Assembly (NCBI GenBank): GCA_046482545.1
Contig: JAWOEX010000021.1
Coordinates: 103,041 to 167,040 of the forward strand
DNA length: 64,000 nucleotides
Source of the DNA: Candidatus Thorarchaeota archaeon
Lineage (GTDB): Archaea > Asgardarchaeota > Thorarchaeia > Thorarchaeales > Thorarchaeaceae
Direction of reading: 5' to 3'
Of the stretch, positions 3,127 to 57,440 are shown piece by piece. The notes under the pieces are model-generated. The model saw only the letters and a program-made list of their open reading frames with translations. It was not told where the DNA came from and did not search any database. Position 1 is the first letter of the stretch. Each line of letters opens with the position of its first letter. A program made the translations under genes and the position numbers.

Positions 3127-3765
3127 TTGCATTGGAAAGAACAGATTAAGAAGCTTGTACAGCCAGCGGAGGGGCGTGTGTCTCCCGCCTTCAAACCGCA
3201 CCATGTTGCTGTTGCAATTGTGATGATTGGTCGAAGACAACCCCTTGGGCGATACGAACTCTGTGACACCATGTCAATTGGTGAGGGGAGTGCCAGAACT
3301 CTGCTAAGACGCCTAGGAGAAAGGGATTACATCACAGCCGAGGGACGACAAGGGCAGAAACTGACACATACAGGTCAAGAGATATTCGAGGCAATGATCA
3401 ATGATATTCCGCGAGGGCTCTATCTGGATGTTGAAGGGCTCGCAATGTATGAAATCTCCTACGGCAATTTGGTGAAACAGAAGGCGGAAGAGGTCACGGA
3501 TGGTATAAGACAACGTGATGAAGCAATAATCCAAGGAGGCTATGGTGAAGCAGGAGCAACAACATTGGTCTGCAAGGAGGGACTGCTGCTCATGCCGCCG
3601 AATAATTTCAACCCTCTCCTCAAATACGAAGACGAGACACTACTAATTATGGATAGTTTGCGACCCAAGGATGGGGATGTAGTAGTAATTGGATCAGCGA
3701 ATAATAGTGGACTGGCAAGAGAAATCGCAATGGCATCTTCTATGACGCTCCTTGGTGAGGAATAG
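3127..3765 (+). CDS. Hypothetical wHTH-containing protein
   Basis: ORF translation. The N-terminal segment LGRYELCDTMSIGEGSARTLLRRLGERDYI looks like a winged helix. Confidence 0.4.
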   Translation: MHWKEQIKKLVQPAEGRVSPAFKPHHVAVAIVMIGRRQPLGRYELCDTMSIGEGSARTLLRRLGERDYITAEGRQGQKLTHTGQEIFEAMINDIPRGLYLDVEGLAMYEISYGNLVKQKAEEVTDGIRQRDEAIIQGGYGEAGATTLVCKEGLLLMPPNNFNPLLKYEDETLLIMDSLRPKDGDVVVIGSANNSGLAREIAMASSMTLLGEE

Positions 3766-3767
3766 GC

Positions 3768-4574
3768 ATGCAATCTGACATTTACGGCAACGTGCCGGAC
3801 ATAGTTATAGATGTCCACGAAACGAAGGGCAAGCGGAAGAACGCAGTGAAGCATCTTATGTCCATGTTGGACAAAGAAGAAATTAACTATACAGTAGAAA
3901 AGCTGCCGATTGGCGATGTTCTAGGCACTGACGGGATTGCAATCGAGCGAAAAACCGTAAATGATCTTGTGCATACCTTGACAGGAAGCAAATCTGGCGT
4001 CCCACGTCTTAAGAAACAGATGGACGCTCTTCTTGAATATGAGCAACCATACTTACTCATTGAGAACTTGCTTGCAGTCCGCCGCGACCCGATGAAAGGA
4101 TGTGTGTATATCCCCTTTTCTTCAAAGAAGACGAAAAAGAAAGGGGGATATTACGTGACCATGGAGCGTGCAAGTTTCATCCATCCAAATTCGCTGGATG
4201 GATTGATTGATAGCATACGTGATCGCGGTATTGATATTCTAGAGGGTTTCAACGCGCTTCATTCAGCTGGACTTCTTTTCGGTATCCTAAATGAACAAGA
4301 CTGGGATGAAAGAGAGGTTACGCGGTTACCTGTAATTAGGACCCGGAAAGGGCTTGATAGCATGAGCGATGAACAGGAGTTCTTTGTGGCAGGTTTCCCT
4401 AACATCAACGCTGTCAGAGCAAAACAACTCTTGGAAAAATTCGGGAGCCCTTTCGAGGTTGTTACACGTACAGACGAATGGGGAGAAGTTCACGGAATAG
4501 GGCCCAAGACCGTTGAGGGGGTACGGAAAATGCTGTTTTCTAGTTATGAACCAGAGAAAGAAGACACGCCGTAG
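3768..4574 (+). CDS. ERCC4-domain nuclease (short XPF/Hef/Mus81-type, no helicase) with C-terminal (HhH)2
   Basis: ERK-type active-site motif GIAIERKTVNDL. C-terminal HhH motif GFPNINAVRAKQLLEKFGSPFEVVTRTDEWGEVHGIGPKTVEGV. Confidence 0.65.
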   Translation: MQSDIYGNVPDIVIDVHETKGKRKNAVKHLMSMLDKEEINYTVEKLPIGDVLGTDGIAIERKTVNDLVHTLTGSKSGVPRLKKQMDALLEYEQPYLLIENLLAVRRDPMKGCVYIPFSSKKTKKKGGYYVTMERASFIHPNSLDGLIDSIRDRGIDILEGFNALHSAGLLFGILNEQDWDEREVTRLPVIRTRKGLDSMSDEQEFFVAGFPNINAVRAKQLLEKFGSPFEVVTRTDEWGEVHGIGPKTVEGVRKMLFSSYEPEKEDTP

Positions 4575-4636: not shown

Positions 4637-5725
4637 ATGGGCGACGATGTACGTATAGCCATAGCTGGACTGGGAAATTGTGCCTCTGCACTCATACAGG
4701 GTGTGCATTACTACAAAGATGCAAAAGCAGATGAAGAGGTTCCGGGCCTAATGCATGTTGACTTTGGGGGATATTTTCCGAAACACCTCAAGTTTGTGGC
4801 GGCTTTCGAAGCAAATGAGCGGAAGATAGGCAAAGATATCTCTGAAGCAATTTGGGAAGACCCAAATTGTTGTGAGAATTTTGTACCTGATTTACCCAAA
4901 ACAGGTGTCGAGGTATTACCTGGCCCAATTTCGGATGGTGTTGCAGACCACATGATGGATTCATTCTATGCCTATGATGATGATATTGAGCCCGTTGATG
5001 TGGCTGAAGAGCTCAAAGAAGCAGAAGCCGATATGTTGATTAACTATCTACCTGTGGGAAGCGCTGAAGGGGCACGGATATATGCAAAGGCGGCTCTCGA
5101 AGCCGGTGTTGCATTTGTCAATGCTATCCCCGAGTTTATTGTTTCCGACCCGAATGACCCAATAACCACGCAGTTCAGGGAGAAAGGCATACCATGTGCT
5201 GGTGATGATATCAAAAGCCAGCTAGGTGCTACCATTCTGCACAGAGTCTTGGCACAGCTGTTTGACAAGCGTGGTCTGATTGTTAATAATACATATCAGC
5301 TGAATATTGGAGGTAATACTGACTTCGAAAATATGCAGGTTGAGGATCGGCTGAGCAGCAAGCGAGTCAGTAAGACAGAAGCGGTCACAAGCTGCGTCAA
5401 GTATCATCTACCGACCAAAATCGGTCCGAGTGACTATGTCCCATTCCTTGACGATAATAAGATATGCTACATCTCCATGCGAGCCAATTCGTTCGGAGAC
5501 CTTCCAGTAGATGTGGATCTCAAGCTTTCAGTTCAGGACTCACCAAACAGTGCTGGAGTCATCATTGATGTGGCCAGAGCAATAAAGATAGCACTTGACC
5601 GGGGTGTAGGTGGCGAACTCTCAAGCATCAGTTCATACTCGTTCAAACACCCAAGATATCAAATTGATGACTTTGAGGCACGAAAGAGAGTAGATGAATT
5701 CATAGCTGGAGAAAGAGAGCGCTAG
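4637..5725 (+). CDS. myo-inositol-1-phosphate synthase (archaeal-type)
   Basis: 362 aa. N-terminal Rossmann segment RIAIAGLGNCASALIQGV. Overall match to archaeal MIPS-family signatures. Confidence 0.75.
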   Translation: MGDDVRIAIAGLGNCASALIQGVHYYKDAKADEEVPGLMHVDFGGYFPKHLKFVAAFEANERKIGKDISEAIWEDPNCCENFVPDLPKTGVEVLPGPISDGVADHMMDSFYAYDDDIEPVDVAEELKEAEADMLINYLPVGSAEGARIYAKAALEAGVAFVNAIPEFIVSDPNDPITTQFREKGIPCAGDDIKSQLGATILHRVLAQLFDKRGLIVNNTYQLNIGGNTDFENMQVEDRLSSKRVSKTEAVTSCVKYHLPTKIGPSDYVPFLDDNKICYISMRANSFGDLPVDVDLKLSVQDSPNSAGVIIDVARAIKIALDRGVGGELSSISSYSFKHPRYQIDDFEARKRVDEFIAGERER

Positions 5726-5758
5726 GTGTACAGAACAGTACCCTAGCCTTTCCCCCAT

Positions 5759-6883
5759 CTATATTTCCGTGAAGCTTTTCGCTTTATCTTCATCAAGTCG
5801 TTGGATAACCTCGACTAATAACCTCACAGCGTTTTCCACATCATCGAAATCAAGCATTCCATGATGAGAATGAATATGTCTTGTGGGTATACCTATGAAC
5901 AATGAGGGGGCACCCATGCCGGTTATATGGATAATACCAGCATCTGTACCACCACTCTTCAAGAACGCCGGCTGATGCTTCACGCCAATTTCCTCAGCGA
6001 TATCTAAAACGAATCTTCTAAATCTAGGGTTCGGTATCATTGAACCGTCGCCAGCAGAAATCGAGACGCCATTGCCCATCTTCTGGACGAGATCTTTTGC
6101 ACCGGGAACATCACCGGATATGTCAACGTCGAGGGCGAAACCTAAATCAGGTTTGACCATTTGTGCAGCCGTCCTAGCTCCTCGAAGACCCACTTCTTCC
6201 TGTGCGGTGGATACAGCATAAATGGTATTGGGATGATTCAGGTTATTGGTGCTAAGACGACGTAACACTTCTAACACAATGAAAACACCAATTCTATCGT
6301 CGAAGGCTTTTGCCACCCCGACGATGGTTTCATGAGTAGTTTCTTCCTCATTATCATCGTCTTCCTCTTTCCGAATCCGATCCATTGTTCGGAATTGTGC
6401 GTGGGGTACAGCTGGGTCGCCAACTTGGATACCTAACCCCTCTACTTCCTCCTTGGAACTGCAGCCAATATCGATATACATGTCTTTCATTTTAACTGGT
6501 TTCTTCCTTGTTTCATCATCCAGCACATGTGGAGGTGGGGCCCCAATCACCCCGATTATTTTGTCGTCCCCATTAGATGGTTTGATAACAACCTCATGAG
6601 TTAGCAATGTCTGATCCCACCAGCCTCCTAAGCTGTGGAATTTCAAGAAACCATCTTTTTTTATCTCAGTAACAACGAAGCCTATTTCATCGATATGCCC
6701 TGCAAGCATGATTTTTGGTCCAGAATCTCCGCGTTTGAAAATGACAGAGCCCATCCTATCATACAACACTTCGTCTGCAAATTCCTCTCCATAATCTCGT
6801 GCAAGCCTCTGAGCCTCATGTTCAAAACCACTAGGGCCAAAGGCATTGCATAGACGCTCCAAAAAATCGATATCTAAGTCCAT
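5759..6883 (-). CDS. M42 family (TET/FrvX) aminopeptidase
   Basis: Motifs MLAGHIDEIGFVVTEI and HSHHGMLDFDD. Typical M42 peptidase length. Confidence 0.75.
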   Translation of the reverse strand: MDLDIDFLERLCNAFGPSGFEHEAQRLARDYGEEFADEVLYDRMGSVIFKRGDSGPKIMLAGHIDEIGFVVTEIKKDGFLKFHSLGGWWDQTLLTHEVVIKPSNGDDKIIGVIGAPPPHVLDDETRKKPVKMKDMYIDIGCSSKEEVEGLGIQVGDPAVPHAQFRTMDRIRKEEDDDNEEETTHETIVGVAKAFDDRIGVFIVLEVLRRLSTNNLNHPNTIYAVSTAQEEVGLRGARTAAQMVKPDLGFALDVDISGDVPGAKDLVQKMGNGVSISAGDGSMIPNPRFRRFVLDIAEEIGVKHQPAFLKSGGTDAGIIHITGMGAPSLFIGIPTRHIHSHHGMLDFDDVENAVRLLVEVIQRLDEDKAKSFTEI

Positions 6884-7019
6884 TATTACACTTCATCCTT
6901 CTTGTGCTATCACGCAGGAATTCACTATAATTATGCTTATCGGCAGGACCAATCAAAGAATATAGAATAATATCATCTAGTCATGATTTTCGGCATATAA
7001 GAAGCAAGAATGGGTAGGT

Positions 7020-7586
7020 TTACAGTACCACGTTTTTTGCAAGCATCTCAAAAGCTTCTTCCACGTTCTGACCTGTTAGGGCACTGGTTTCCAGATACCC
7101 CGCTAAATCCTTCTTGATAACATATTCACGAGCTACTTCGGAACTGATAGTCCGTTGATCGTCCAAATCAACTTTGTTGGCCAGTACAATGATTGGAATG
7201 GACTCGTCTAGGGCTTTCTCGGTTTCTGCAATCCAATTGTCAAGAACATTGAATGTTGATTTCCGGGTGGTGTCGAAGACCAGCAAGGCTCCCTTTGCCC
7301 CGCGATAGTAGCTGTTTCGGATGAAGTCAAATCGCTTTTGTCCTGCCAAATCCCATATGAGAAGCTTAACTCGCTTCTCATTGCCACTTGAATCGTTTAC
7401 CGGTACTATCTTCACGGCGAATTGGCTTCCAATGGTTACTATGTATTGTTCAGTAAAGCGGTTGGTTAGAAATCGGTTGACTAGAGCGGTCTTTCCGCTA
7501 CCTCCAGCTCCTATCATGACCACTTTTCGTACAACGTGGAAATCTTGAGATGGTGAATTTGACACCGAATAATCCATTTCAATCAT
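7020..7586 (-). CDS. Small GTPase of Ras superfamily (Rab-like)
   Basis: P-loop GAGGSGKT. G3 motif WDLAGQKRF. Rab-type YYRGAKGALLVFD. G4 motif NKVD. G5 motif ETSALTG. Confidence 0.75.
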   Translation of the reverse strand: MIEMDYSVSNSPSQDFHVVRKVVMIGAGGSGKTALVNRFLTNRFTEQYIVTIGSQFAVKIVPVNDSSGNEKRVKLLIWDLAGQKRFDFIRNSYYRGAKGALLVFDTTRKSTFNVLDNWIAETEKALDESIPIIVLANKVDLDDQRTISSEVAREYVIKKDLAGYLETSALTGQNVEEAFEMLAKNVVL

Positions 7587-7796
7587 CCCATAGCCTTCGT
7601 CTTAGACAATTCATGTTGGTACAAGGGAAGCGTTTAGGCCTTATTTCTATATGATACATATAGCCTTTTTCGGGTCAGACAATCACTGCGCATTGAGACA
7701 TCTAGACAATCAGGATTGGCGCGTTATTTTCTCCATTACACTACGAACCAGAAGATATTATATCGCTACGAAGAGCTAGAATTTTACGCCGGGAGG

Positions 7797-7994
7797 ATGA
7801 CGAAGATGCAATTGGTAACAGTAAAAATGAATCAACTTTACATTAAATCGCTAGACAAGCTTGTTGAACTAGGCATGTATCCTTCCCGTAGCGAAGCTAT
7901 ACGAGTTGCAATACGAGATCTCCTGCAGAAAGAACTATGGCCGGAGGAGGGCATGCCAGCTAAACAAGAGCTGCGTGCTGAGACCTCCGAATAG
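7797..7994 (+). CDS. Ribbon-helix-helix (CopG/Arc family) DNA-binding protein
   Basis: The segment MTKMQLVTVKMNQLYIKSLDKLVELGMYPSRSEAIRVAIRDLL fits the RHH pattern. A likely internal start at 7797 falls within ORF 7716..7994. Confidence 0.5.
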   Translation: MTKMQLVTVKMNQLYIKSLDKLVELGMYPSRSEAIRVAIRDLLQKELWPEEGMPAKQELRAETSE

Positions 7995-8083
7995 GGGCCT
8001 AATCAGGAATAATATATAAGCGAAACAACTAACACAATATACTTTAGTAGCACAATTCAAAGAGAAAACGGGGCACGAGAATA

Positions 8084-8614
8084 ATGAATCTGGGAATTCT
8101 TCTGAAGAGTATGAAACTAGCCTTTCGATCGAAGAGACGCGTTCTTTCATTCATAGTCATTTATTCAATACTCATCGTGCTGGTAGCAAAAGGGATTCAA
8201 GGTTCAGCTGGTTCCCTTCTGGAAATGCTCTTGTGGCCCCTGACTGCGCTGGTGGTTGCAACAGTGTATGCCATATTGATATCGCAGTTCCGTAAGCGTG
8301 ATGTAAGCATCCTCAAATGCATCGGCTGGACAAATCACGATGTGATGCTTCTGGTGGTAGGTGAGGTGGTTGTCGTTTCATTAGCCGCGTTTTTCCTAGT
8401 TTTCCAAGTCAGTGTCGAAATCCTAGGGTTGGTTGCCTATTTTGAGGGGTTGGACACAGGACTCCTCCAAATGCTACTGGACCTTATCGCAGTCGAATGG
8501 CAGCCAATGCTCGTTACACTCATCTATATCGTAGTGCTACAGCTTCCAGGAGTCGGTCTAGCACATTACCGCATGATGAAAATACCGCCTATGCAGGCGC
8601 TAAGGGAGGAATAG
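8084..8614 (+). CDS. Small membrane protein (FtsX-like permease fragment?)
   Basis: Four hydrophobic helices. Lies directly upstream of an ABC ATPase. Confidence 0.4.
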   Translation: MNLGILLKSMKLAFRSKRRVLSFIVIYSILIVLVAKGIQGSAGSLLEMLLWPLTALVVATVYAILISQFRKRDVSILKCIGWTNHDVMLLVVGEVVVVSLAAFFLVFQVSVEILGLVAYFEGLDTGLLQMLLDLIAVEWQPMLVTLIYIVVLQLPGVGLAHYRMMKIPPMQALREE

Positions 8615-8616
8615 GC

Positions 8617-9303
8617 ATGACTAATCCAATCCTAAGAGCAGAAGAAGTGAACAAGGAGTACGGTCGGGGAAAGAAGACAGTAGCTGCACTCAAGAGTGTT
8701 GATATAGAAGTAGCCCCGGGCGAGTTTGTGGCGGTCCATGGACCATCTGGATGTGGTAAGTCAACTCTCTTGCATGTCATGGCTGGACTCGAACAGCCAA
8801 CTTCTGGTCGAATTCTGATTGATGGCGTTGATGTAACATTGGTCAGTGAAAGGGACCTTCCACGCCTCCGCGCAAAGAAGATTGGATTTGTCTTTCAATC
8901 ATTCCTCCTCATCGAAGATTTGACCTCATTTGAGAACGTACAGTCAGTTTTGTGGCCAGATGAGGAATTGAACAAGAAGAAACAGGAAGCGAAGGCCCTT
9001 CGAGTATTGCGCGAAGTTGATATGTTAGAACGTAAAGATCATTTTCCACGCCAACTTAGCGGCGGAGAACAACAACGGGTAGCCATAGCTCGTGCACTTG
9101 TTAATGATCCGCCGATTCTCTTTTGCGATGAACCCACGGGCAATCTTGACTCAGAAAGTGGCGAGTCAATCATGAAAATCATCGCCAAGCTGAACAAGGA
9201 AAAAGGTATGACTGTAATTCTTGTTACGCACGATGAAAGTCTGGCAAAATTCGCCCAGAGAATCCTTCGTATGAAAGATGGCGTAATCACCTCCGATAAG
9301 TAA
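8617..9303 (+). CDS. ABC transporter ATP-binding protein (MacB/LolD-like)
   Basis: Walker A GPSGCGKST. Signature LSGGEQQRVAIARAL. Walker B ILFCDEPTGNLD. Start ATG at 8617. Confidence 0.8.
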   Translation: MTNPILRAEEVNKEYGRGKKTVAALKSVDIEVAPGEFVAVHGPSGCGKSTLLHVMAGLEQPTSGRILIDGVDVTLVSERDLPRLRAKKIGFVFQSFLLIEDLTSFENVQSVLWPDEELNKKKQEAKALRVLREVDMLERKDHFPRQLSGGEQQRVAIARALVNDPPILFCDEPTGNLDSESGESIMKIIAKLNKEKGMTVILVTHDESLAKFAQRILRMKDGVITSDK

Positions 9304-9387
9304 AGAAAATTGCGGATAATTTGCAGTGGCTAAGGTTTTGGAGCAATAGAGAGAATTTGTCAGAAAATGAAGAGTGTGTAGGAATCC

Positions 9388-10215
9388 ATGGCCATTGAGG
9401 ATTGTAAGGAAGCTCAGGCTATTGCAGAGGCAAGAGCCAAAGAGGGTAAAAACAAAGTTGCTATGAATTTATTCTACAAGACAGCAGAATGCTGGAACCG
9501 CTGGGAATCGTTTGTGAAGGCTGCTCAAGCGTATGAAAGAGCGTACGAACACGGGATGTTGTGCCATGAGTACAGTACTGCAATTGACTATCTCCTCAAG
9601 GGAGCAATGGCGTGGATAAGACAAGGAGAATACGAGAAGTTTGAACTTGATTATCAAATAGCTGCTGAAGGGCATATTATGGCTGCAGAGAAAGACAAGA
9701 ACCCCCAACACTTCATTGAGGGGGCGTTCTGTGCCATCGTTGGAGGAGATATAGATTTCGCCAAGGAGCTTATCCATGCGTCAGTAGAGACCTTGAAAGG
9801 AACTGCAAAGGAAAAAACAAACCTTGCCTTGATGCTTCTTGAATATCAGTTCGGTGATGCTGACAGATACATCGAATCTGCTCTAAAGAGAGTGCTCGAT
9901 AGGAAAGGGGTGAAGAAAGTTCGACAAATTTTTACATTGACCTTTGAAGGATTTGTGCGAACTTCTCTAGAATCTGAAGCGGCTGTAACTGTTACAAGCC
10001 TTTCAGAAAGCACAGGGTTGTCAGAGAATGTAGTGGAATCGCTTGTCAGAAGAGGCACAAGAAATGGACACATTCCTGCATTTCTTGATGAGGAAGCCCT
10101 CGAACTGATAGTTGATTCGGACCGCTTCGACCTGTCGAGGCTGAAACGAAGAAAAGGACCTATACAAAGCCGTGAACTGGAGGATCCAGGAGCTTGGGAT
10201 ATGGAACTAGACTGA
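9388..10215 (+). CDS. Hypothetical alpha-helical protein
   Basis: ORF with no recognisable motifs. Confidence 0.4.
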   Translation: MAIEDCKEAQAIAEARAKEGKNKVAMNLFYKTAECWNRWESFVKAAQAYERAYEHGMLCHEYSTAIDYLLKGAMAWIRQGEYEKFELDYQIAAEGHIMAAEKDKNPQHFIEGAFCAIVGGDIDFAKELIHASVETLKGTAKEKTNLALMLLEYQFGDADRYIESALKRVLDRKGVKKVRQIFTLTFEGFVRTSLESEAAVTVTSLSESTGLSENVVESLVRRGTRNGHIPAFLDEEALELIVDSDRFDLSRLKRRKGPIQSRELEDPGAWDMELD

Positions 10216-27075: not shown

Positions 27076-27211
27076 AACTAAGGTCCTCCGCGCTTATGGG
27101 ATGATTCTAACACATGTACATTTATGGTTATTCTATATGGCCTTATAACCTATTTCTTAGGTGAATGACCTAGAAAGATTAAGCTGAATCCGTCAATAGC
27201 CAATTCCACTA

Positions 27212-27763
27212 TTAATTGGCCTTTATTGTCCATGTGCACGTTTCATCGCCCACAGCCTGACAAGACTCTTGGTAGGATTCGCCCTTGAAACCCCGCAAGT
27301 CAAGTACTGCTTGAAATACGCCGCTAACAAGATTGCAATATTGCAGTCCGGGCATTTCTGTTATTTGAACATCTTGACAGATTACACAGTTATCATCTGT
27401 GAACTTAATCGTCTTCTTGTCGTCACTTATCCAAGTAGATGTGAACTCTTGGCCCGAATTGACCTTATACGCTAATCTGAGTGTGGATGCAAACTCATGA
27501 AACTCACCCGCGTGTTCGCTTATCTTTTCCGCATAGTCCATTAGAAGGTGTTCTCCAACACGAAAACCAATATCCTTCAGCTGACCGTTGATTACTTCCA
27601 CGCTTTGAGAGTGCTGAATCAAGTAGTTCATCAGCTCTCTATATACGGACTGGAACAGTGGTTTAGCCACTTTGTCAATCTTTAGGGCCCATGCAAGCTT
27701 TCCTTTCAATCCCATTGTGTTTCCCTCATCGTCATTCTTTTCGTGTTCTATTCGTGCGAACAA
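27212..27763 (-). CDS. V4R-domain protein
   Basis: DNCVICQDVQITEMPGLQYCNLVSGVFQAVLDL...ESCQAVGDETCTWTI. Confidence 0.5.
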   Translation of the reverse strand: MFARIEHEKNDDEGNTMGLKGKLAWALKIDKVAKPLFQSVYRELMNYLIQHSQSVEVINGQLKDIGFRVGEHLLMDYAEKISEHAGEFHEFASTLRLAYKVNSGQEFTSTWISDDKKTIKFTDDNCVICQDVQITEMPGLQYCNLVSGVFQAVLDLRGFKGESYQESCQAVGDETCTWTIKAN

Positions 27764-45290: not shown

Positions 45291-45978
45291 CCACGTCTTG
45301 AGAAGCCAATGCTACATCGGGCCGACCGTCGAATATGACTCTTCCCTCATGTAGTACCATCAGTGATTCAGCCCAATTCTCATAATAGAATCGGTTATGG
45401 GTTGTATACATGACACTAATGTCCTGCCTGCGTAAATTGCGTATTATTTCCACGAGCCTCATTACCATCTGATAGTCCAGACCGCTGAATGGTTCGTCTA
45501 AAAGCAGTATCTTTGGATTCAGGGCGAGGATACCAGCTAGCGCAATCCGTTTTGCCTGGCCATGGCTCAGTTCGTTGATTGATCGATTTTTGTAATCTGC
45601 CATACCAACCATTTCCAGTGTCCTTTCCACCCTTTGGACTACATCCTGATGTGATAGACCTTGATTCTTCGGACCGAAGGCCACATCTTCCCACACCGTA
45701 GGAGCAAACAGCTGATCATCTGGGTTCTGAAAGAGAAGTCCAATATCCTGCCGAATCCTCCATAGATTAGAGGGCTTTAGTTCTCGTCCCAGTACTCTGA
45801 TGCTCCCTGAATCTGGTCGCAGAAGACCGACAATGAGCCGAAGCAGAGTGGTTTTGCCAGACCCATTCAACCCTACTATCGCCTTCAATTCTCCCTTCGC
45901 CAGCTCTAAATTGATTTCTTGCATAGTAAACTCACTGTAACTGAACGATACATCCTTGATATCTGTGGCATTAACCAA
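45226..45978 (-). CDS. cbiO: ECF/cobalt transporter ATPase CbiO/EcfA
   Basis: GLNGSGKTTL, LSHGQAKRIALAGIL, LLLDEPFSGLD. Confidence 0.8.
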   Translation of the reverse strand: MVNATDIKDVSFSYSEFTMQEINLELAKGELKAIVGLNGSGKTTLLRLIVGLLRPDSGSIRVLGRELKPSNLWRIRQDIGLLFQNPDDQLFAPTVWEDVAFGPKNQGLSHQDVVQRVERTLEMVGMADYKNRSINELSHGQAKRIALAGILALNPKILLLDEPFSGLDYQMVMRLVEIIRNLRRQDISVMYTTHNRFYYENWAESLMVLHEGRVIFDGRPDVALASQDVVDKIGDWEYLRNVLRNDSKQH

Positions 45979-46751
45979 TTGCAGAAAACCTCCGTGACTA
46001 GGGGGAACAACACCAGAAAGAAGCTGGCAAAAAGCGCAGCAAGCAGAAGTGCAGTATCCCCACGTTTGAATCCAGTTGCATCCATTATGTTTGCCCTTCC
46101 AAACCCACGCAGTAGCATTGCCTCGTATACAGATTCACTTCTCTGTAAGGCGCGACCAATTGTAGAACCCACCATGAAGCCGGTGGACTTTATCCTGCTC
46201 CATCTTTTCCCCTTCTGATATCCCCGTAATGCCTGGGCATCTTGCATTGTCTCCCGCTCTTCAACAAAAAGTGGAATGTATCTGAGCATTATAAGAAGAG
46301 AGGCAATGATTGAGCTCGGAATATGGAGAGACCTCAATCCCGCTGTGAACTCGGATAGGCTCATGTGTGAGAAAGTCACCATGAAAAGTAGTAGCAGAGT
46401 CATCATTCTAAAACCAAGAAAAAGACCTAACTCCAGTCCTTCCCAGTACAACGGGACATTCAACAATGGGACCCGAAAAAGTTCAGTATCACCAAAAATG
46501 AATGGCATGAAGAATATCCAGAATAGGATAACCAGTTCAAGTCTTGTGACTAATGGCAAAACACGGTGCCATGCAGTGTGCGCAACAGTTCCAAAAACCA
46601 GAATACACGCTATGATGAGAACAACAGCTACGATGCTCCGTTGTAGTGAAATAACTATACCAAGAAAAAAAGAGAAGAGAATGATTCCTGCCGGTGAGAA
46701 CCGTTCCAGATTCTCTCTAGCACTGGAGAAGGGAAGGAGGAATCGCTCCAT
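45906..46751 (-). CDS. cbiQ: ECF transporter T component CbiQ/EcfT
   Basis: Polytopic protein with AxxxRG-like motif MLLRGFG. Confidence 0.6.
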   Translation of the reverse strand: MERFLLPFSSARENLERFSPAGIILFSFFLGIVISLQRSIVAVVLIIACILVFGTVAHTAWHRVLPLVTRLELVILFWIFFMPFIFGDTELFRVPLLNVPLYWEGLELGLFLGFRMMTLLLLFMVTFSHMSLSEFTAGLRSLHIPSSIIASLLIMLRYIPLFVEERETMQDAQALRGYQKGKRWSRIKSTGFMVGSTIGRALQRSESVYEAMLLRGFGRANIMDATGFKRGDTALLLAALFASFFLVLFPLVTEVFCNWLMPQISRMYRSVTVSLLCKKSI

Positions 46752-46805
46752 TCATCTTACACTTCCAAGTCCAATCCGGGGAGGAGTATTTTAGATTGAA
46801 ATGAA

Positions 46806-47138
46806 TTACGCTTGTTCAGTTCTGCGGGCAAGCAACCAGAAGAGGAATACGCCCAGCGCAAAGACAGCAACTATCCCGATGGCACCGGTTATGACATCAG
46901 TCACTGCACCTTCTTCGAGAAAAGCGAAAATGCCCTCGAATGAAGAACGGGGCTCTCCTACACCCGCGAATTCAAAGAGTGACCATTCGAAACCGTCGGG
47001 CATATTGGATGCAAATCCGCCCAGAATAATGACGGAAACAGCTGCTATGAGGACTATGAGAATCAATACTACAAACTTCATAGCGTTTTGTCCTTCCATT
47101 TTACACACCCTCCGCATCAGGTACGACAGATATTTCAT
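46806..47138 (-). CDS. cbiN: CbiN/NikL-like small membrane component
   Basis: Two TM helices with PDGFEW motif. Confidence 0.5.
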   Translation of the reverse strand: MKYLSYLMRRVCKMEGQNAMKFVVLILIVLIAAVSVIILGGFASNMPDGFEWSLFEFAGVGEPRSSFEGIFAFLEEGAVTDVITGAIGIVAVFALGVFLFWLLARRTEQA

Positions 47139-47787
47139 CTAGTTCGCTTGAGTCCAAGAAGGAAACCAGCTCCGGTCTTGATTTCACGAAATACAGTAGA
47201 ATGACAAAAGTCAGAATTGCCTCACCCACAGCGATGATTACGTGAACGCTTGTAATTGCAATCAGGGATTCAAATCCAAACCCCGGAACTGTGAGAAGCT
47301 CGATTCCCAGTAGCATAGCTGCAATAATCGTTGTTACAAAGGATGCAATCGCTGTGGCAATTAGTACGGCACGCTTCTTGTCTAGAAAGCTTCCCAACAT
47401 CTTGAAGAGACCCTTCGCTAGAATCCACCCAAATAAACATGAAAACACACCCATATTGAATAGATTGAGACCAAAGGTAAGAAGTCCGCCATCACCATAT
47501 AGTGCTTGAACGAATAGCACCAGTGCCATTATCAATATCCCAGCCCATGGTCCAAGCATAACCGCTAGGAGAGTCGATCCCACAAGGTGTCCGCTAGATG
47601 CTGGTGGTACAGGAAAATTGACTAGCTGTACAGCAAATATGACAGCAGCCATCACTCCAATATAGGGCACGAGCCGTTCACTGTATCTATTATGAATAAT
47701 CTTCACTGAAATAATTAATATCAAACCGCTGACAACGAAGAGGAGAAGCTGTAGCCATAGCGGAACAATACCATCAGGTACATGCAT
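47101..47787 (-). CDS. cbiM: Ni/Co ECF transporter substrate component CbiM/NikM
   Basis: N-terminus MHVPDGIV matches the canonical MHIPDG. Seven TM helices. Confidence 0.75.
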   Translation of the reverse strand: MHVPDGIVPLWLQLLLFVVSGLILIISVKIIHNRYSERLVPYIGVMAAVIFAVQLVNFPVPPASSGHLVGSTLLAVMLGPWAGILIMALVLFVQALYGDGGLLTFGLNLFNMGVFSCLFGWILAKGLFKMLGSFLDKKRAVLIATAIASFVTTIIAAMLLGIELLTVPGFGFESLIAITSVHVIIAVGEAILTFVILLYFVKSRPELVSFLDSSELDEISVVPDAEGV

Positions 47788-48403: not shown

Positions 48404-48700
48404 CTAATCCGAAAGACGTTGTATTTTGAAGACGACGGTACCACCTGACGTGTATGGTTTGCCTGGATCCAAGCACTGCACATAGTACGTATCTTTTTCA
48501 TGCGATAGGCCAATTTCATTAGCAGGTACTCCAGAACGAATAGCCAGCAAATATGGCATCCATGAGGATGATGCCCATACACAGTAGGCATCCGTCTTCT
48601 CAAGATTTAGCGCAGCTCCTTCTATGATGATTTCATCACCTTGCTCGAAGACAGGGCAAGTCCCTTCTACCTGTTCAACCGCTATTTTGATTCCTTTCAT
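48404..48700 (-). CDS. Hypothetical small protein (likely start MKGIKI)
   Basis: Within ORF 48404..48775, the upstream 5' part overlaps a conserved noncoding element. Confidence 0.35.
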   Translation of the reverse strand: MKGIKIAVEQVEGTCPVFEQGDEIIIEGAALNLEKTDAYCVWASSSWMPYLLAIRSGVPANEIGLSHEKDTYYVQCLDPGKPYTSGGTVVFKIQRLSD

Positions 48701-48785
48701 TGCGAGTAGTAATGACTGTGACTCCAAATAAACGAGCTGACTGTCCCTAACCGTTGCTGCGAAGCTCACGTACAAAGCCCCTGCT

Positions 48786-48880
48786 GACCTGAGGACCTTC
48801 GGGTACCTTGGGGGCAGCGACGCTGGCAGGGGAAGGGTGGAGCACAGAAGTTTCCTCAGTTGGGTTCACTCAACTGTAAG
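48786..48880 (+). repeat. Short conserved element, copy 1 (second copy at 56853-56925)
   Basis: About 80% identity over roughly 75 nt: GGTACCTTGRGGGC...ACGCTGG..AGGGG.AGGGTGGA.CACAGAAGTTTC. Confidence 0.5.
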
Positions 48881-49078
48881 AAATGGGTTATCAGGAAGGT
48901 GTAGAAGACAAACTAGCACTACTTGAAGAACGCATCATAGAAAATCCAAAAACCATCAGATGGCGGGTTAGAGCTTTTTTAGGACGCAAGTTGCCTGTCA
49001 GGAAGGTTGTTGAAGAAGAGAATCTGAAAGTAGGTTAGAATCTTCTCTATTGCCTACCGCCATTGTTCACGTGTTGAT

Positions 49079-49582
49079 TCATTCTTTCCAGTAGTATTCA
49101 AAATCGCAGCAATCCTCGCCTTGCATAAGCGTTTTTGACCGTCTCAATCTAACATCTGGATGGATTGCAGGGGTTGCTGGAAAGTCCTGTTTACAGTGAA
49201 GGAGATAGCCAATTTCGGTTGCGTCAAGTTTCTCAAATACTCTGGCATGGACACACTGAGTGACCATGCAGAGTGATTTGGTTTCGTCTTCTTCTGTTAT
49301 AGTGACCTCTTCGATGTTGTTCTTGTTCAGGTCGTTGACCCATTGATGCAACAGTAGCTTGACGTCTTCAAAGTTTTGAATGGGCTCATCTAGTTCTTCA
49401 ACAATACTCCTAACATCTTCAACTGCTTGGCGTTCGGCCCAATCAGAAACCATTTGGTGAGCTCTCTGTTCACCAAGACTCTTTTCCAAGGCGCGTACGA
49501 GTGATACAAGTTGTGAGGCAATGGCTTCAAAGTGCTCTTCAACAGTGATATCCATCTGATGCTCAAACTTCGAATTGGACAA
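49079..49582 (-). CDS. Hypothetical Cys-rich protein (paralog of 61240..61752)
   Basis: The C-terminal Cys pattern C-x3-C ... C ... CC-x-FE is shared with the paralog. Confidence 0.45.
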   Translation of the reverse strand: MSNSKFEHQMDITVEEHFEAIASQLVSLVRALEKSLGEQRAHQMVSDWAERQAVEDVRSIVEELDEPIQNFEDVKLLLHQWVNDLNKNNIEEVTITEEDETKSLCMVTQCVHARVFEKLDATEIGYLLHCKQDFPATPAIHPDVRLRRSKTLMQGEDCCDFEYYWKE

Positions 49583-49656
49583 GTTTCGTTCCTCATCTTA
49601 GAATTGAAAGCCAACTACATATCTTTATCTGAAAATTACAAGGAACTGCGACCTGC

Positions 49657-49917
49657 CTCATACCGGGAATCTACTGTTTGATTAACAGCAGATCTTCCAC
49701 AGTGTTTGCCACGGCGTGGCCATGATGACCCACCTCAGCCTTGTCACCGTAGCTGAGAAGATCAATCTAGACATGGTGAACAGCCGTGGGTTCTCCTGAA
49801 CTCGATGGAGTACCTTGTTTGAAGAGTGAGGGTTTCTGCTTAGAAGACTGGTCTTCCCTTAGGCTTTCGGCCGCGTGCGTCGTGTAAGAGCACTAGCCCA
49901 TTTGCCTAGTCGTGCTG
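49657..49917 (+). repeat. Long conserved element, copy 1 (second copy 56530-56795, minus)
   Basis: About 75-80% identity over roughly 260 nt, with indels. Contains a micro-ORF. Confidence 0.5.
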
Positions 49918-50024
49918 ATATCCGGTACTGTTGTCAGTCTAATGAACACATCTTTGGCCACGAGAAGGGCTTAATCAAATCTTGCAGAAATCCTATATTT
50001 TACTGCACTGATGTATTAATATTT

Positions 50025-51170: not shown

Positions 51171-51279
51171 CTACTGGTTATTCCAAATACCTCGGTCCGG
51201 TATTAACCTCTTGCAAGGGGGAAGAAGGAACACAGAATTCTTAGGGAGGTTGAGTTCACTCACCTGTAAGATAGGTGAT

Positions 51280-51382
51280 ATGGGGCCGAGAGCGGGAATT
51301 GAACCCGCGGCTAGGGAGCCACAATCCCCAAGGTTGCCAGAGGGCCTGCCCAATGTCATCAGGCAGTCTACCCCATCTCGGC
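51280..51382 (-). tRNA. tRNA-His (GUG) with about 25-nt intron in the D-loop
   Basis: The reverse complement is GGCCGAGA...GGGGATTGTGGCTCCCT...GCGGGTTCAATTCCCGC-TCTCGGC-C-CCA. Encoded G-1 plus discriminator C73. Anticodon loop TTGTGGC. A 35-nt stretch lies between D-stem halves GGGT/ACCT, with an internal hairpin CTGCC-N11-GGCAG. Confidence 0.55.
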
Positions 51383-56427: not shown

Positions 56428-56640
56428 ATAATACTGGACGGCAGAGAGAGACTTCTGTAAGACTTAACGCAAATCTTCGGACGTAAGAAGACGAGGGGAG
56501 TCTATTATATCCAGCATAATACTCTATTCTAGTAGGACTAGGCAAGTGGACTAGAGTGGTATACATGACGCACGCGACCGAAAGCTGCAAGGAAGATATG
56601 TGCTTCCAACCAGAAGTCCTTACTCTCCATAGAGAGAACT

Positions 56641-56727
56641 TCATCGAGCTCTGGAGAGTCCGCGGCTGTTCACCTTATCTAAACGGACCTTCTCAGTTAC
56701 GGTCACAAGGCTGAGATGGGTGATCAT
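56641..56727 (-). CDS. Candidate conserved micro-ORF (28 aa; second copy 49722..49799 on the plus strand)
   Basis: MITHLSLVTVTEKVRLDKVNSRGLS aligns with MMTHLSLVTVAEKINLDMVNSRGFS. Inter-copy nucleotide differences are enriched at third codon positions. Confidence 0.25.
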   Translation of the reverse strand: MITHLSLVTVTEKVRLDKVNSRGLSRAR

Positions 56728-57014
56728 GACCACACCGTGGCAAAGACTATGGAAGAACTTGCTATTGCCGGAGTGATGACCCGGGATGACGACAAGAGGA
56801 GGAAGCCTGTACCGCGGAAGGAATCCCATTCCGATGAACGCGGACAAAGGCCTTGCTAACGCAAGGGCCTACCGGTACCTTGAGGGCGGTTACGCTGGTA
56901 GGGGCAGGGTGGAACACAGAAGTTTCACGCAGCCGCAGAGACTGCAAAAAAAAAACAGGTTATAATACTGAATTTCAAAAGAAAAAGGTGCTGTTCCTTT
57001 ATTGAGGTAACATA

Positions 57015-57440
57015 ATGGACTTTCGCAGTGTCGTGAATCCGGACAATAAGAAAGAGGAATACGAAACGATTCCACAGAGAGAGAACCGAAAGTGTATAAA
57101 CTTGGCACCACTCAAGGGTATGCTTGAATCTGATCCTGTGCGCTCGAAAGTCCTGAAATTGCTCATCGAAGATGGGGGATGGGTCAGCACAACTGATTTG
57201 TTGAAGGCAGCAAGAAAGACAAGACCTCTGATTGGTGCAGTAACGATTGGAACTATCCTCAATAGCATCAATGAACTCGTTGCATCAAGGCTGGTGCTAA
57301 GCCGCACGTCACTCGCTTCAGGAATTGAATGGGCCGAATGGAGAATGAATCCAGATTGGCTTGGACCCACTCGCAAACTTGTGCAGATGCTAAGCAGACG
57401 TCAGCGGCGAATTGACCAGCAACCAGCCAACCGTAGGTAG
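57015..57440 (+). CDS. Hypothetical protein
   Basis: ORF only. Confidence 0.35.
   Translation: MDFRSVVNPDNKKEEYETIPQRENRKCINLAPLKGMLESDPVRSKVLKLLIEDGGWVSTTDLLKAARKTRPLIGAVTIGTILNSINELVASRLVLSRTSLASGIEWAEWRMNPDWLGPTRKLVQMLSRRQRRIDQQPANRR

Follow-up and report, generated by a model that had tools for sequence, protein, structure and literature searches.

Repeated elements beside nickel-associated genes of a Thorarchaeota contig as probable relics of a TnpB-linked structured RNA

Introduction

The omega RNAs of TnpB nucleases overlap the 3′ end of tnpB, and passages of two reports describe standalone omega RNAs and omega-RNA-encoding palindrome-associated transposable elements (PATEs) that work in trans (PMC10691335, PMC10055086); a further paper supports the same TnpB/omega-RNA biology (PMC10278001). 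In archaea, a UUCA tetraloop has been reported in the haloarchaeal sense-overlapping transcripts of tnpB (sotRNAs) and in a PATE-derived RNA (PMC4615843). For the aCas1-associated TnpB of Asgard archaea, Altae-Tran et al. 2023, in the section concerned with these groups, describe a hypervariable stretch downstream of tnpB that is bounded by T and GTTCACTCA, and suggest that it might be the guide (PMC10691335). Here, we analyze a repeated short element in a 64,000-nucleotide (nt) stretch of DNA from a Candidatus Thorarchaeota archaeon (assembly GCA_046482545.1, contig JAWOEX010000021.1, positions 103,041 to 167,040). This whole stretch is referred to as the window, and positions are numbered from its first nucleotide.

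A preliminary description of the window, made from its letters, had considered the element a possible cis-regulatory leader, small RNA (sRNA) or promoter cassette of minus-strand genes in two nickel-associated neighbourhoods. Our analysis leads to a different assignment. With a probability of about 0.85, the short element makes up the tnpB-distal end (~130 nt) of a structured RNA of ~430 nt that belongs to an abundant Thorarchaeota family of IS200/IS605-type (OMEGA) TnpB, and the copies in the window are its relics.

Results

Copies of the element in the window

Two copies of about 80% identity had been reported in plus orientation, and a repeat search bears this out: positions 48760–48854 and 56832–56926 form a 95-nt ungapped direct repeat with 78% identity, and blastn within the window aligns the two copies with an E value of 3e-17. 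Both copies are G+C islands, with a G+C content of 0.59–0.63 versus 0.45 window-wide. The hairpin noted 3′ of copy 1 (CAGTTG-N8-CAACTG, 48857–48876) and the GCAG..CTGC stem with its A10 run 3′ of copy 2 (56931–56956) are both present as described. The unit is longer than the ~75 nt originally given to it, as R1, a covariance model of the short element built from nine copies, matches 120 positions at each locus (48772–48891 with 114.8 bits and 56844–56963 with 105.6 bits). A third, partial copy, denoted as c3, has to be added to the original two; it lies at 51203–51281 (R1 26.6 bits, E 1.8e-5) and aligns with copy 1, denoted as c1, at 51216–51281 (66 nt, 73%, blastn E 1e-5). A long element nearby is repeated too, with 49684–49916 being the reverse complement of 56531–56766 (236 nt, 77.5%, blastn E 1e-47). 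An Rfam scan of the window returned two tRNAs and nothing else, and around either locus no match was obtained at E ≤ 10.

The long and short elements form one structured RNA

The search for further copies that the preliminary description had proposed was successful. Scans with degenerate patterns located the element in three Thorarchaeota metagenome-assembled genomes and six metagenome contigs; two more metagenome matches were chance ones, and a scan of a viral contig collection gave none. The long and short parts are contiguous in six or more loci outside the window, on one strand in L004, L006, L009/L012, L010/L011 and L013, where they follow the same order as at window locus 2: the long element, the short element, the hairpin with TTCACTCA, and then AGAAAnnGGTTAT. 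The short element is not the independent module it was taken for. The short repeat forms the terminal part of a larger unit that has been duplicated, an alternative that had been named at the outset.

A full-length alignment of six copies (A1, 445 columns) was analyzed with RNAalifold, which yielded 117 pairs, 34 of them with compensatory changes. In this structure 94.3% of the cells are paired, compared with 40–45% when the 3′ partners are slid by 1–3 columns, and both sides have changed in 35 pairs, compared with 4–9 in the slid controls. None of 500 shuffles matched the observed percentage paired, both-side changes or covariation score. For the short element alone (15 distinct copies), the alignment of which was fitted to the covariance model and hence leans towards the structure, 94.6% of the cells are paired versus 42–53%, and 11 of 24 pairs show double changes versus 3–6. 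The conserved secondary structure that had been suggested as a check is thus present, with strong covariation. An all-against-all comparison of columns for pseudoknots, with six sequences, was too noisy.

The alignments also report on the strand. G-U cells far exceed A-C cells, by 67 to 16 in the full-length alignment and by 71 to 6 in the short-element alignment, and therefore the RNA lies on the plus strand of the window, pointing away from the minus-strand genes. Among its hairpins, GGAGGGAy-nnn-rUCCC-GAUGA combines a covarying outer stem with the sequence signature of a kink-turn (K-turn), and both of the flanking helices (16 and 17) covary. Its counterpart at 56812–56843 would, as we infer from this signature, form a K-turn. 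The same signature accounts for a weak match to the SAM-I aptamer (E 0.077, L010), which covers the K-turn-like motif.

The RNA overlaps the 3′ end of tnpB

The R1 match in L013 (2899–3016) falls on the 3′ end of a 361-amino-acid (aa) open reading frame (ORF) of the same strand, and a homologue of the whole ~430-nt RNA is located within and just past the last ~140 codons of this ORF. L013 copy 2 represents a sixth, divergent lineage, in which the R1 match (64 bits) overlaps the last ~35 codons of the ORF. In L010, the RNA overlaps a 598-aa TnpB ORF. PF07282 (Cas12f1-like TNB domain) is found above its cut-off on both the L013 361-aa ORF and the L010 598-aa ORF (E 1e-14 and 3e-13). NCBIfam guided_TnpB is matched with E 6e-22 over profile positions 82–387, scoring 78 bits against a curated cut-off of 100 bits, and a TnpB in the PDB (9nzp) is matched with E 2.6e-7.

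The TnpB core ends near residue 480, and the RNA starts at residue ~494 (GLGKW, encoded by GGACTAGGCAAGTGG). The L010 ORF ends in CCCGATGA, and the stop codon TGA lies inside the CCCGATGA of the K-turn-like hairpin. The RNA overlaps the last ~105 codons of tnpB, with ~320 nt inside the ORF (the last ~105–140 codons across L010, L013 copy 2, L016, L020, L023 and L025). From these start and stop positions it follows that the long element is the part of the RNA over the TnpB tail and the short element the part downstream of the stop codon. R1 was run with the ORF end on record for five independent tnpB loci (L010, L016, L020, L023 and L025). It scores 100–116 bits in all five, on the same strand as tnpB, with the match beginning 7 nt past the stop codon in L010, L016, L020 and L023 and 55 nt past it in L025. 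Every locus with a tnpB of this family has a same-strand RNA over the tnpB 3′ end, and this is the arrangement of a TnpB omega RNA and a transposon right end. What is directly established is the homology, the position relative to tnpB, the structure and the strand.

The family is widespread in Thorarchaeota. At E ≤ 1e-10, a minimum of 656 homologues of the L010 TnpB were obtained; the best 120 of these are 66–82% identical to it and ~560 aa in length, and those whose source names give an organism are all from Thorarchaeota, with one exception labelled Promethearchaeia. The homologues carry the product names transposase, IS605 OrfB, RNA-guided endonuclease TnpB, zinc ribbon domain-containing protein and hypothetical protein. 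An intact 542-aa TnpB with its RNA, locus L025 (RNA at 3374–3807), is encoded on contig JBNJHH010000001.1 of GCA_051748335.1, an assembly that also holds the window DNA, on contig JBNJHH010000005.1. All three larger window pieces have their nearest relative in the L025 RNA.

Two of the loci merit separate mention. Downstream of the same TnpB (P0015) and before an L37ae gene, different samples contain the short element either at full length (100 bits, L016 4193–4322) or shortened (48 bits, L015 4193–4282), and the right end accordingly varies between populations. In L005 (3968–4396, plus strand), a short-element fragment abuts the C-terminal remnant of a DpdA-type DNA-guanine transglycosylase (PDB 7ui4 residues 357–427, E 4e-16). 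An insertion of the mobile element into a gene was considered for L005 and rejected; only the C-terminal DpdA remnant is found there, so the junction looks like a rearrangement scar at the element end.

State of the window copies

No tnpB is present in the window (Table 1). In tblastn searches of the window with eight family members, TnpB C-terminal tails were the only matches, at 56575–56772 and 49689–49909, and the core was never matched; residues 472–537 of P0092 match the contiguous copy, W2, at 56575–56772. The window copies are thus orphans or relics, not complete elements. The minus-strand ORF 56641–56847, which had been proposed as the gene behind copy 2, is contained in the long element and lacks credibility as a gene. 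A His-rich 47-aa micro-ORF on the plus strand (MGDHDHTVAKTMEEL.., MGDHDH.., 56716–56859) was likewise rejected, as it is left over from the frame that encodes the C-terminal tail of TnpB (in P0092, ..VGDHDHAVARTVEDL), and its start codon is not conserved.

Over its whole length, W2 can be aligned with the tnpB-linked RNA of L010 at 70% identity, and with that of L025 it is 81% identical over 394 nt. The long piece of locus 1 is 79% identical to L025 over 264 nt, and c1 is 85% identical to its tnpB-linked RNA over 141 nt. The sequence ..GGGTTATCAGGAA is common to c1 and L025, which diverge after it, and likely marks the end of the element. Along the 3′ tail (AGAAA..GGTTAT), similarity is lost near GGTTAT in all copies. 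In its terminal region W2 reads GCAGCCGCAGAGACTGCA10, where all other copies have ..TTGAGnTTCACTCA..; c3 retains GGAACACAGAA, the GTTCACTCA hairpin and the tail.

At locus 1, the reverse complement of 49637–49920 joined to 48740–48880 aligns along all of W2 except for ~12–20 nt within the K-turn hairpin. Each piece contains what the other lacks, the two face in opposite directions, and they have diverged from W2 to the same extent (77.5–78%). They would therefore represent one copy, W1, which was split by a single ~0.9-kb inversion (48740–49636) with one breakpoint in the RNA. Such an inversion would explain why the relative orientation of the long and short elements differs between the loci, why their divergence is matched, and where copy 1 has its 5′ boundary. 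W1 includes ~45 nt of extra tnpB-derived sequence upstream.

The tnpB-less copies were also examined as PATE-like units or miniature inverted-repeat transposable elements. The right end is present, and a left end was not found upstream of W2, W1, L009 or L012b; these upstream regions share no sequence or hairpin, and none is similar to the region upstream of the L010 tnpB. A retro-copy or SINE-like (short interspersed element) origin, which 5′-truncated copies with a common 3′ end could suggest, is unneeded given a transposon right end, and W1 has the ~45 nt of tnpB-derived sequence. For c3, which lies beside tRNA-His, an integrase attachment site or tRNA-linked island was discarded, given the lack of an integrase and the differing boundaries of the fragments.

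An ATC-hydrolase gene (PF14196) adjoins a tnpB-less copy both in L009 (308–1168, plus strand) and at window locus 1 (49079–49582, minus strand), with gene orders that are not identical. This adjacency may reflect synteny and long retention of an orphan copy across species.

Terminal hairpin and comparison with known systems

When folded as single sequences, 13 of 15 copies form a terminal UUCA-loop hairpin, the arms of which differ in sequence yet pair. RNAalifold returned no consensus for this hairpin, owing to register shifts in the MAFFT alignment, and its support comes from the single-sequence folds. The tail resembles a transcription factor B recognition element (BRE), and in the minimum-energy folds of seven of the 15 copies its GAAA is paired with the UUUC that follows ACAGAAG; register-shifted or variant stems are formed in others. 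The arrangement GAAGTTTC-(8–13 nt)-GTTCACTCA is present in c1 (with GTTCACTCA at 48864–48872), c3, L005 and L025, and close variants occur in the other copies.

This arrangement connects the RNA with the Cas1H-Asgard-1/2 TnpB groups, which share with it an Asgard host, a second large gene that regularly accompanies tnpB, and the order T, variable stretch, GTTCACTCA, corresponding here to the stretch between GAAGTTTC and GTTCACTCA. The hypervariable stretch before GTTCACTCA is probably the 5′ arm of the terminal hairpin, according to the predicted folds. In this respect the family differs from the suggestion of a guide made in PMC10691335, because the variable stretch folds here as a hairpin arm. 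It also differs from those groups in its neighbour, a protein of 1627–1777 aa in which searches of Pfam, NCBIfam, PADLOC and PDB sequences detected no Cas1 domain.

With the omega RNA (reRNA) and right end of ISDra2 and with the IS1341-type sotRNAs, the element shares a structured RNA on the tnpB sense strand that overlaps the tnpB 3′ end and extends to the right end. The haloarchaeal sotRNAs have a terminal hairpin with a UUCA loop as well (PMC4615843). The protein exhibits the RuvC and TNB zinc-ribbon architecture of IS200/IS605 TnpB. Unlike in known omega RNAs, a K-turn-like hairpin spans the stop codon, and no Rfam family is matched, HgcC included; the likeness to HgcC is at the level of the UUCA-loop motif only. 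W2 resembles standalone omega RNAs and PATEs in being a protein-less guide-RNA region with a cognate TnpB elsewhere in the genome. It differs from PATEs in that no left end was found, which leaves mobility unsupported, and in that the window copies are diverged and partly broken instead of near-identical and recent.

Neighbouring genes and further features of the window

A giant ORF (1627–1777 aa) is encoded divergently upstream of tnpB in every complete tnpB locus examined (in L010 at 4832–9901, minus strand). It lies ~250 nt from tnpB in L010, L015–19, L020–22 and L023–24, and a 224-aa ORF intervenes in L025. Searches of Pfam, NCBIfam, PADLOC and PDB sequences gave no match for this ORF. The giant proteins are homologous, with identities of only 27–47% compared with 69–82% for the TnpBs, and the downstream neighbours differ. 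Their N-terminal ~720 aa are conserved. A PD-(D/E)xK-like motif, GRIDLVIF...ILEIKTK, was recognized by eye. The giant protein may correspond to the 'aCas1' described for Asgard aCas1-TnpB transposons, or constitute a new partner. Asgard aCas1 proteins are reportedly extremely diverged.

A CbiQ/ABC transporter cluster of the energy-coupling factor type (cobalt/nickel) is located less than 2 kb from the intact element in L025 (3951–5629, minus strand) and from c1 in the window (45906–47787, minus strand). The arrangements differ, and the proximity is probably a coincidence. At 27145–27226 on the minus strand, between a gene end and the next minus-strand gene, a low-scoring R1 match (13 bits, E 0.1) terminates with an exact AGAAATAGGTTAT; it may be a very decayed right end or mere promoter-like sequence. 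The tRNA-His gene (51281–51382, minus strand) measures 99 nt according to Rfam and 80 nt according to ARAGORN, with the 3′ CCA apparently encoded, and probably carries a non-canonical intron.

Table 1. Parts of the RNA and associated features in the window.
Feature	Positions	Strand	Remarks
W2, contiguous tnpB-less copy of the ~430-nt RNA	56531..56970	+	scaffold and right end; long element plus short copy 2
Short element copy 2	56832..56963	+	RNA part 3′ of the former tnpB stop codon
K-turn-like hairpin CCGC-GGAA-GGAAT-CCC-ATTCC-GATGAAC-GCGG	56812..56843	+	relic tnpB stop TGA at 56835-56837
W2 degenerate terminal stem and A10	56931..56956	+	stands in for the conserved UUCA-loop hairpin
c1, short element copy 1	48740..48898	+	3′ piece of broken copy W1; R1 114.8 bits
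Terminal UUCA-loop hairpin with motif GTTCACTCA (48864-48872)	48857..48876	+	from sequence and single-sequence folds
5′ piece of W1, the long element at locus 1	49637..49920	-	blastn to 56531-56766, E 1e-47
Putative inverted segment splitting W1	48740..49636	.	carries the ATC-hydrolase gene 49079-49582 and a 51-aa ORF
c3, right-end stub	51203..51281	+	ends exactly at the 3′ end of tRNA-His (minus strand, 51281-51382)

Discussion

The homology and the linkage to tnpB suggest how a complete element would be organized. Its RNA would start just past the TnpB catalytic core, span the last ~105 codons of tnpB, pass the stop codon in the K-turn-like hairpin, and continue through the short element and the terminal UUCA-loop hairpin to end at ..GGTTATCAGGAA. 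By analogy with characterized TnpB systems, the scaffold would bind TnpB, and the sequence just past the element end, supplied by the flank, would serve as the guide. The guide would then direct TnpB to cut the empty donor site or joint, whereby the transposon would be restored and retained. The window copies are old, with 79–85% identity to the intact L025 element, and their structure is eroding. We regard them as relics, or at best as standalone guide RNAs that could be used in trans, and not as regulators of the nickel genes.

Several points weigh against this assignment. An omega-RNA function would follow from position, structure and homology. The guided_TnpB score stays below its curated cut-off, and the nuclease is accordingly a divergent TnpB. 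Unlike in IS200/IS605 OMEGA elements, no Y1 TnpA, left end or transposon-associated motif was identified here, and no left-end-like sequence precedes the tnpB-less copies. No Rfam family is matched, and for HgcC no hit was obtained at E ≤ 10. The ~430-nt scaffold is much longer than characterized TnpB omega RNAs. Finally, three of the four tnpB-less copies start within a few nt of GGACTAGG with AT-rich sequence upstream, which simple random decay would not predict.

The last of these points leads to a different view of the tnpB-less copies. W2, L009 and L012b might be standalone guide RNAs that are maintained and transcribed on their own, or a domesticated ribonucleoprotein RNA that binds L7Ae through the K-turn, acting in trans with a TnpB elsewhere or without it. 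The starts of three of the four tnpB-less copies close to the RNA 5′ end, with AT-rich, TATA-like stretches 25–50 nt upstream, are compatible with such transcription; a cognate TnpB is encoded in the same assembly, standalone omega RNAs acting in trans are documented in a passage of PMC10691335, and the ATC-hydrolase neighbour shared by L009 and window locus 1 hints at long retention. The consensus pairs can be read both ways. W2 keeps 89% of them and L009 and L012b 87–91% despite a broken reading frame, compared with 97–100% in the tnpB-linked copies and 78–83% in W1, a comparison biased by a consensus structure that derives mostly from tnpB-linked copies. Even with this bias, the loss of pairs points to erosion of the orphan copies. 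Moreover, W1, at ~80% of pairs, is broken into two pieces, W2 no longer has the conserved terminal hairpin and has acquired A10, and the window copies reach only 79–85% identity to the intact element of the genome. Loading of W2 by the L025 TnpB in trans could occur in principle, by analogy with known systems, and the decay makes this a minority reading. We consider maintained standalone RNAs unlikely. The same low standing applies to a broader proposal, in which the orphans would be retained, separately transcribed guide RNAs that retarget TnpB in trans, and the family a ~430-nt K-turn class of omega RNA, possibly L7Ae-dependent, of a distinct Asgard RNA-guided transposon with a ~1,700-aa, possibly Cas1-derived, partner.

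Regulatory readings of the element account for less of the evidence. The conserved, structured RNA-type element recognized in the preliminary description stands, and its roles as a leader, a nickel-linked regulator and an independent module do not; as to the last, the pieces at locus 1 rebuild the unit minus ~12–20 nt. A metal-responsive, riboswitch-like leader or an sRNA upstream of the minus-strand genes by nikR and of the TrmB-hypB operon was prompted by the position of copy 1, 60–155 nt ahead of the minus-strand gene that begins at 48700, and of copy 2, ~430 nt upstream of the TrmB-membrane-hypB operon, both in nickel-related neighbourhoods. By the G-U and A-C counts, however, the RNA belongs to the other strand, copy 2 and the operon are separated by the remainder of this RNA, and no Rfam riboswitch is matched. 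The nickel context is coincidental because the homologues adjoin unrelated genes elsewhere (acetyl-CoA synthetase, phosphoglycerate kinase, L37ae, LSM/L37e and leucine-rich repeat genes, among others) and follow tnpB in every complete element. Such a leader is hardly credible. An outward archaeal promoter at the element end (BRE/TATA-like AGAAA-nn-GGTTATAA) for a plus-strand gene downstream, such as 57015–57440, is quite improbable. The tail does resemble a BRE and TATA box, a co-directional gene starts 30–60 nt downstream in W2, L004, L013 and L014, and the exact AGAAATAGGTTAT also precedes an unrelated gene at 27145. The 13-mer, however, occurs only three times in the window versus 1.5 expected, a number equalled by 18 of 100 shuffles; the GAAA of the tail is engaged in pairing with UUUC in the seven of 15 folds mentioned above; and nothing suitable follows in c3 or L009, with c3 running into the antisense tRNA-His. 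A divergent housekeeping RNA (RNase P or signal recognition particle (SRP) RNA), duplicated in the genome, would fit the length of ~430 nt, the motif resemblances (GGAAGUCC, ACAGAA, GCCGUGG and the K-turn) and the one intact copy per window. These RNAs (RNase P, MRP and SRP), circular permutation included, were rejected, as 500–650-nt slices of W2, locus 1 and L010 gave no covariance-model match at E ≤ 10, the helix topology misfits the P4 pseudoknot, and the gene that the RNA overlaps encodes a transposon nuclease found in hundreds of copies; this origin can be practically dismissed. A selenocysteine insertion sequence (SECIS) element, suggested by the K-turn and the Asgard context, was also discarded, given the 430-nt unit and the lack of a selenoprotein context.

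The assignment to a TnpB-linked RNA removes a false nickel-riboswitch lead from the window and explains the puzzling orientation of its modules by one putative inversion. In kind, guide-RNA and right-end remnants of TnpB elements are already known. New are an RNA structure of this family that is absent from Rfam, an unusually long scaffold, and a constant giant neighbour gene. These findings provide a covariation-supported structure of the guide-RNA region for a very abundant Thorarchaeota TnpB family outside Rfam, which extends known biology without overturning any of it and is of use in annotating Asgard genomes and in mining compact RNA-guided nucleases.

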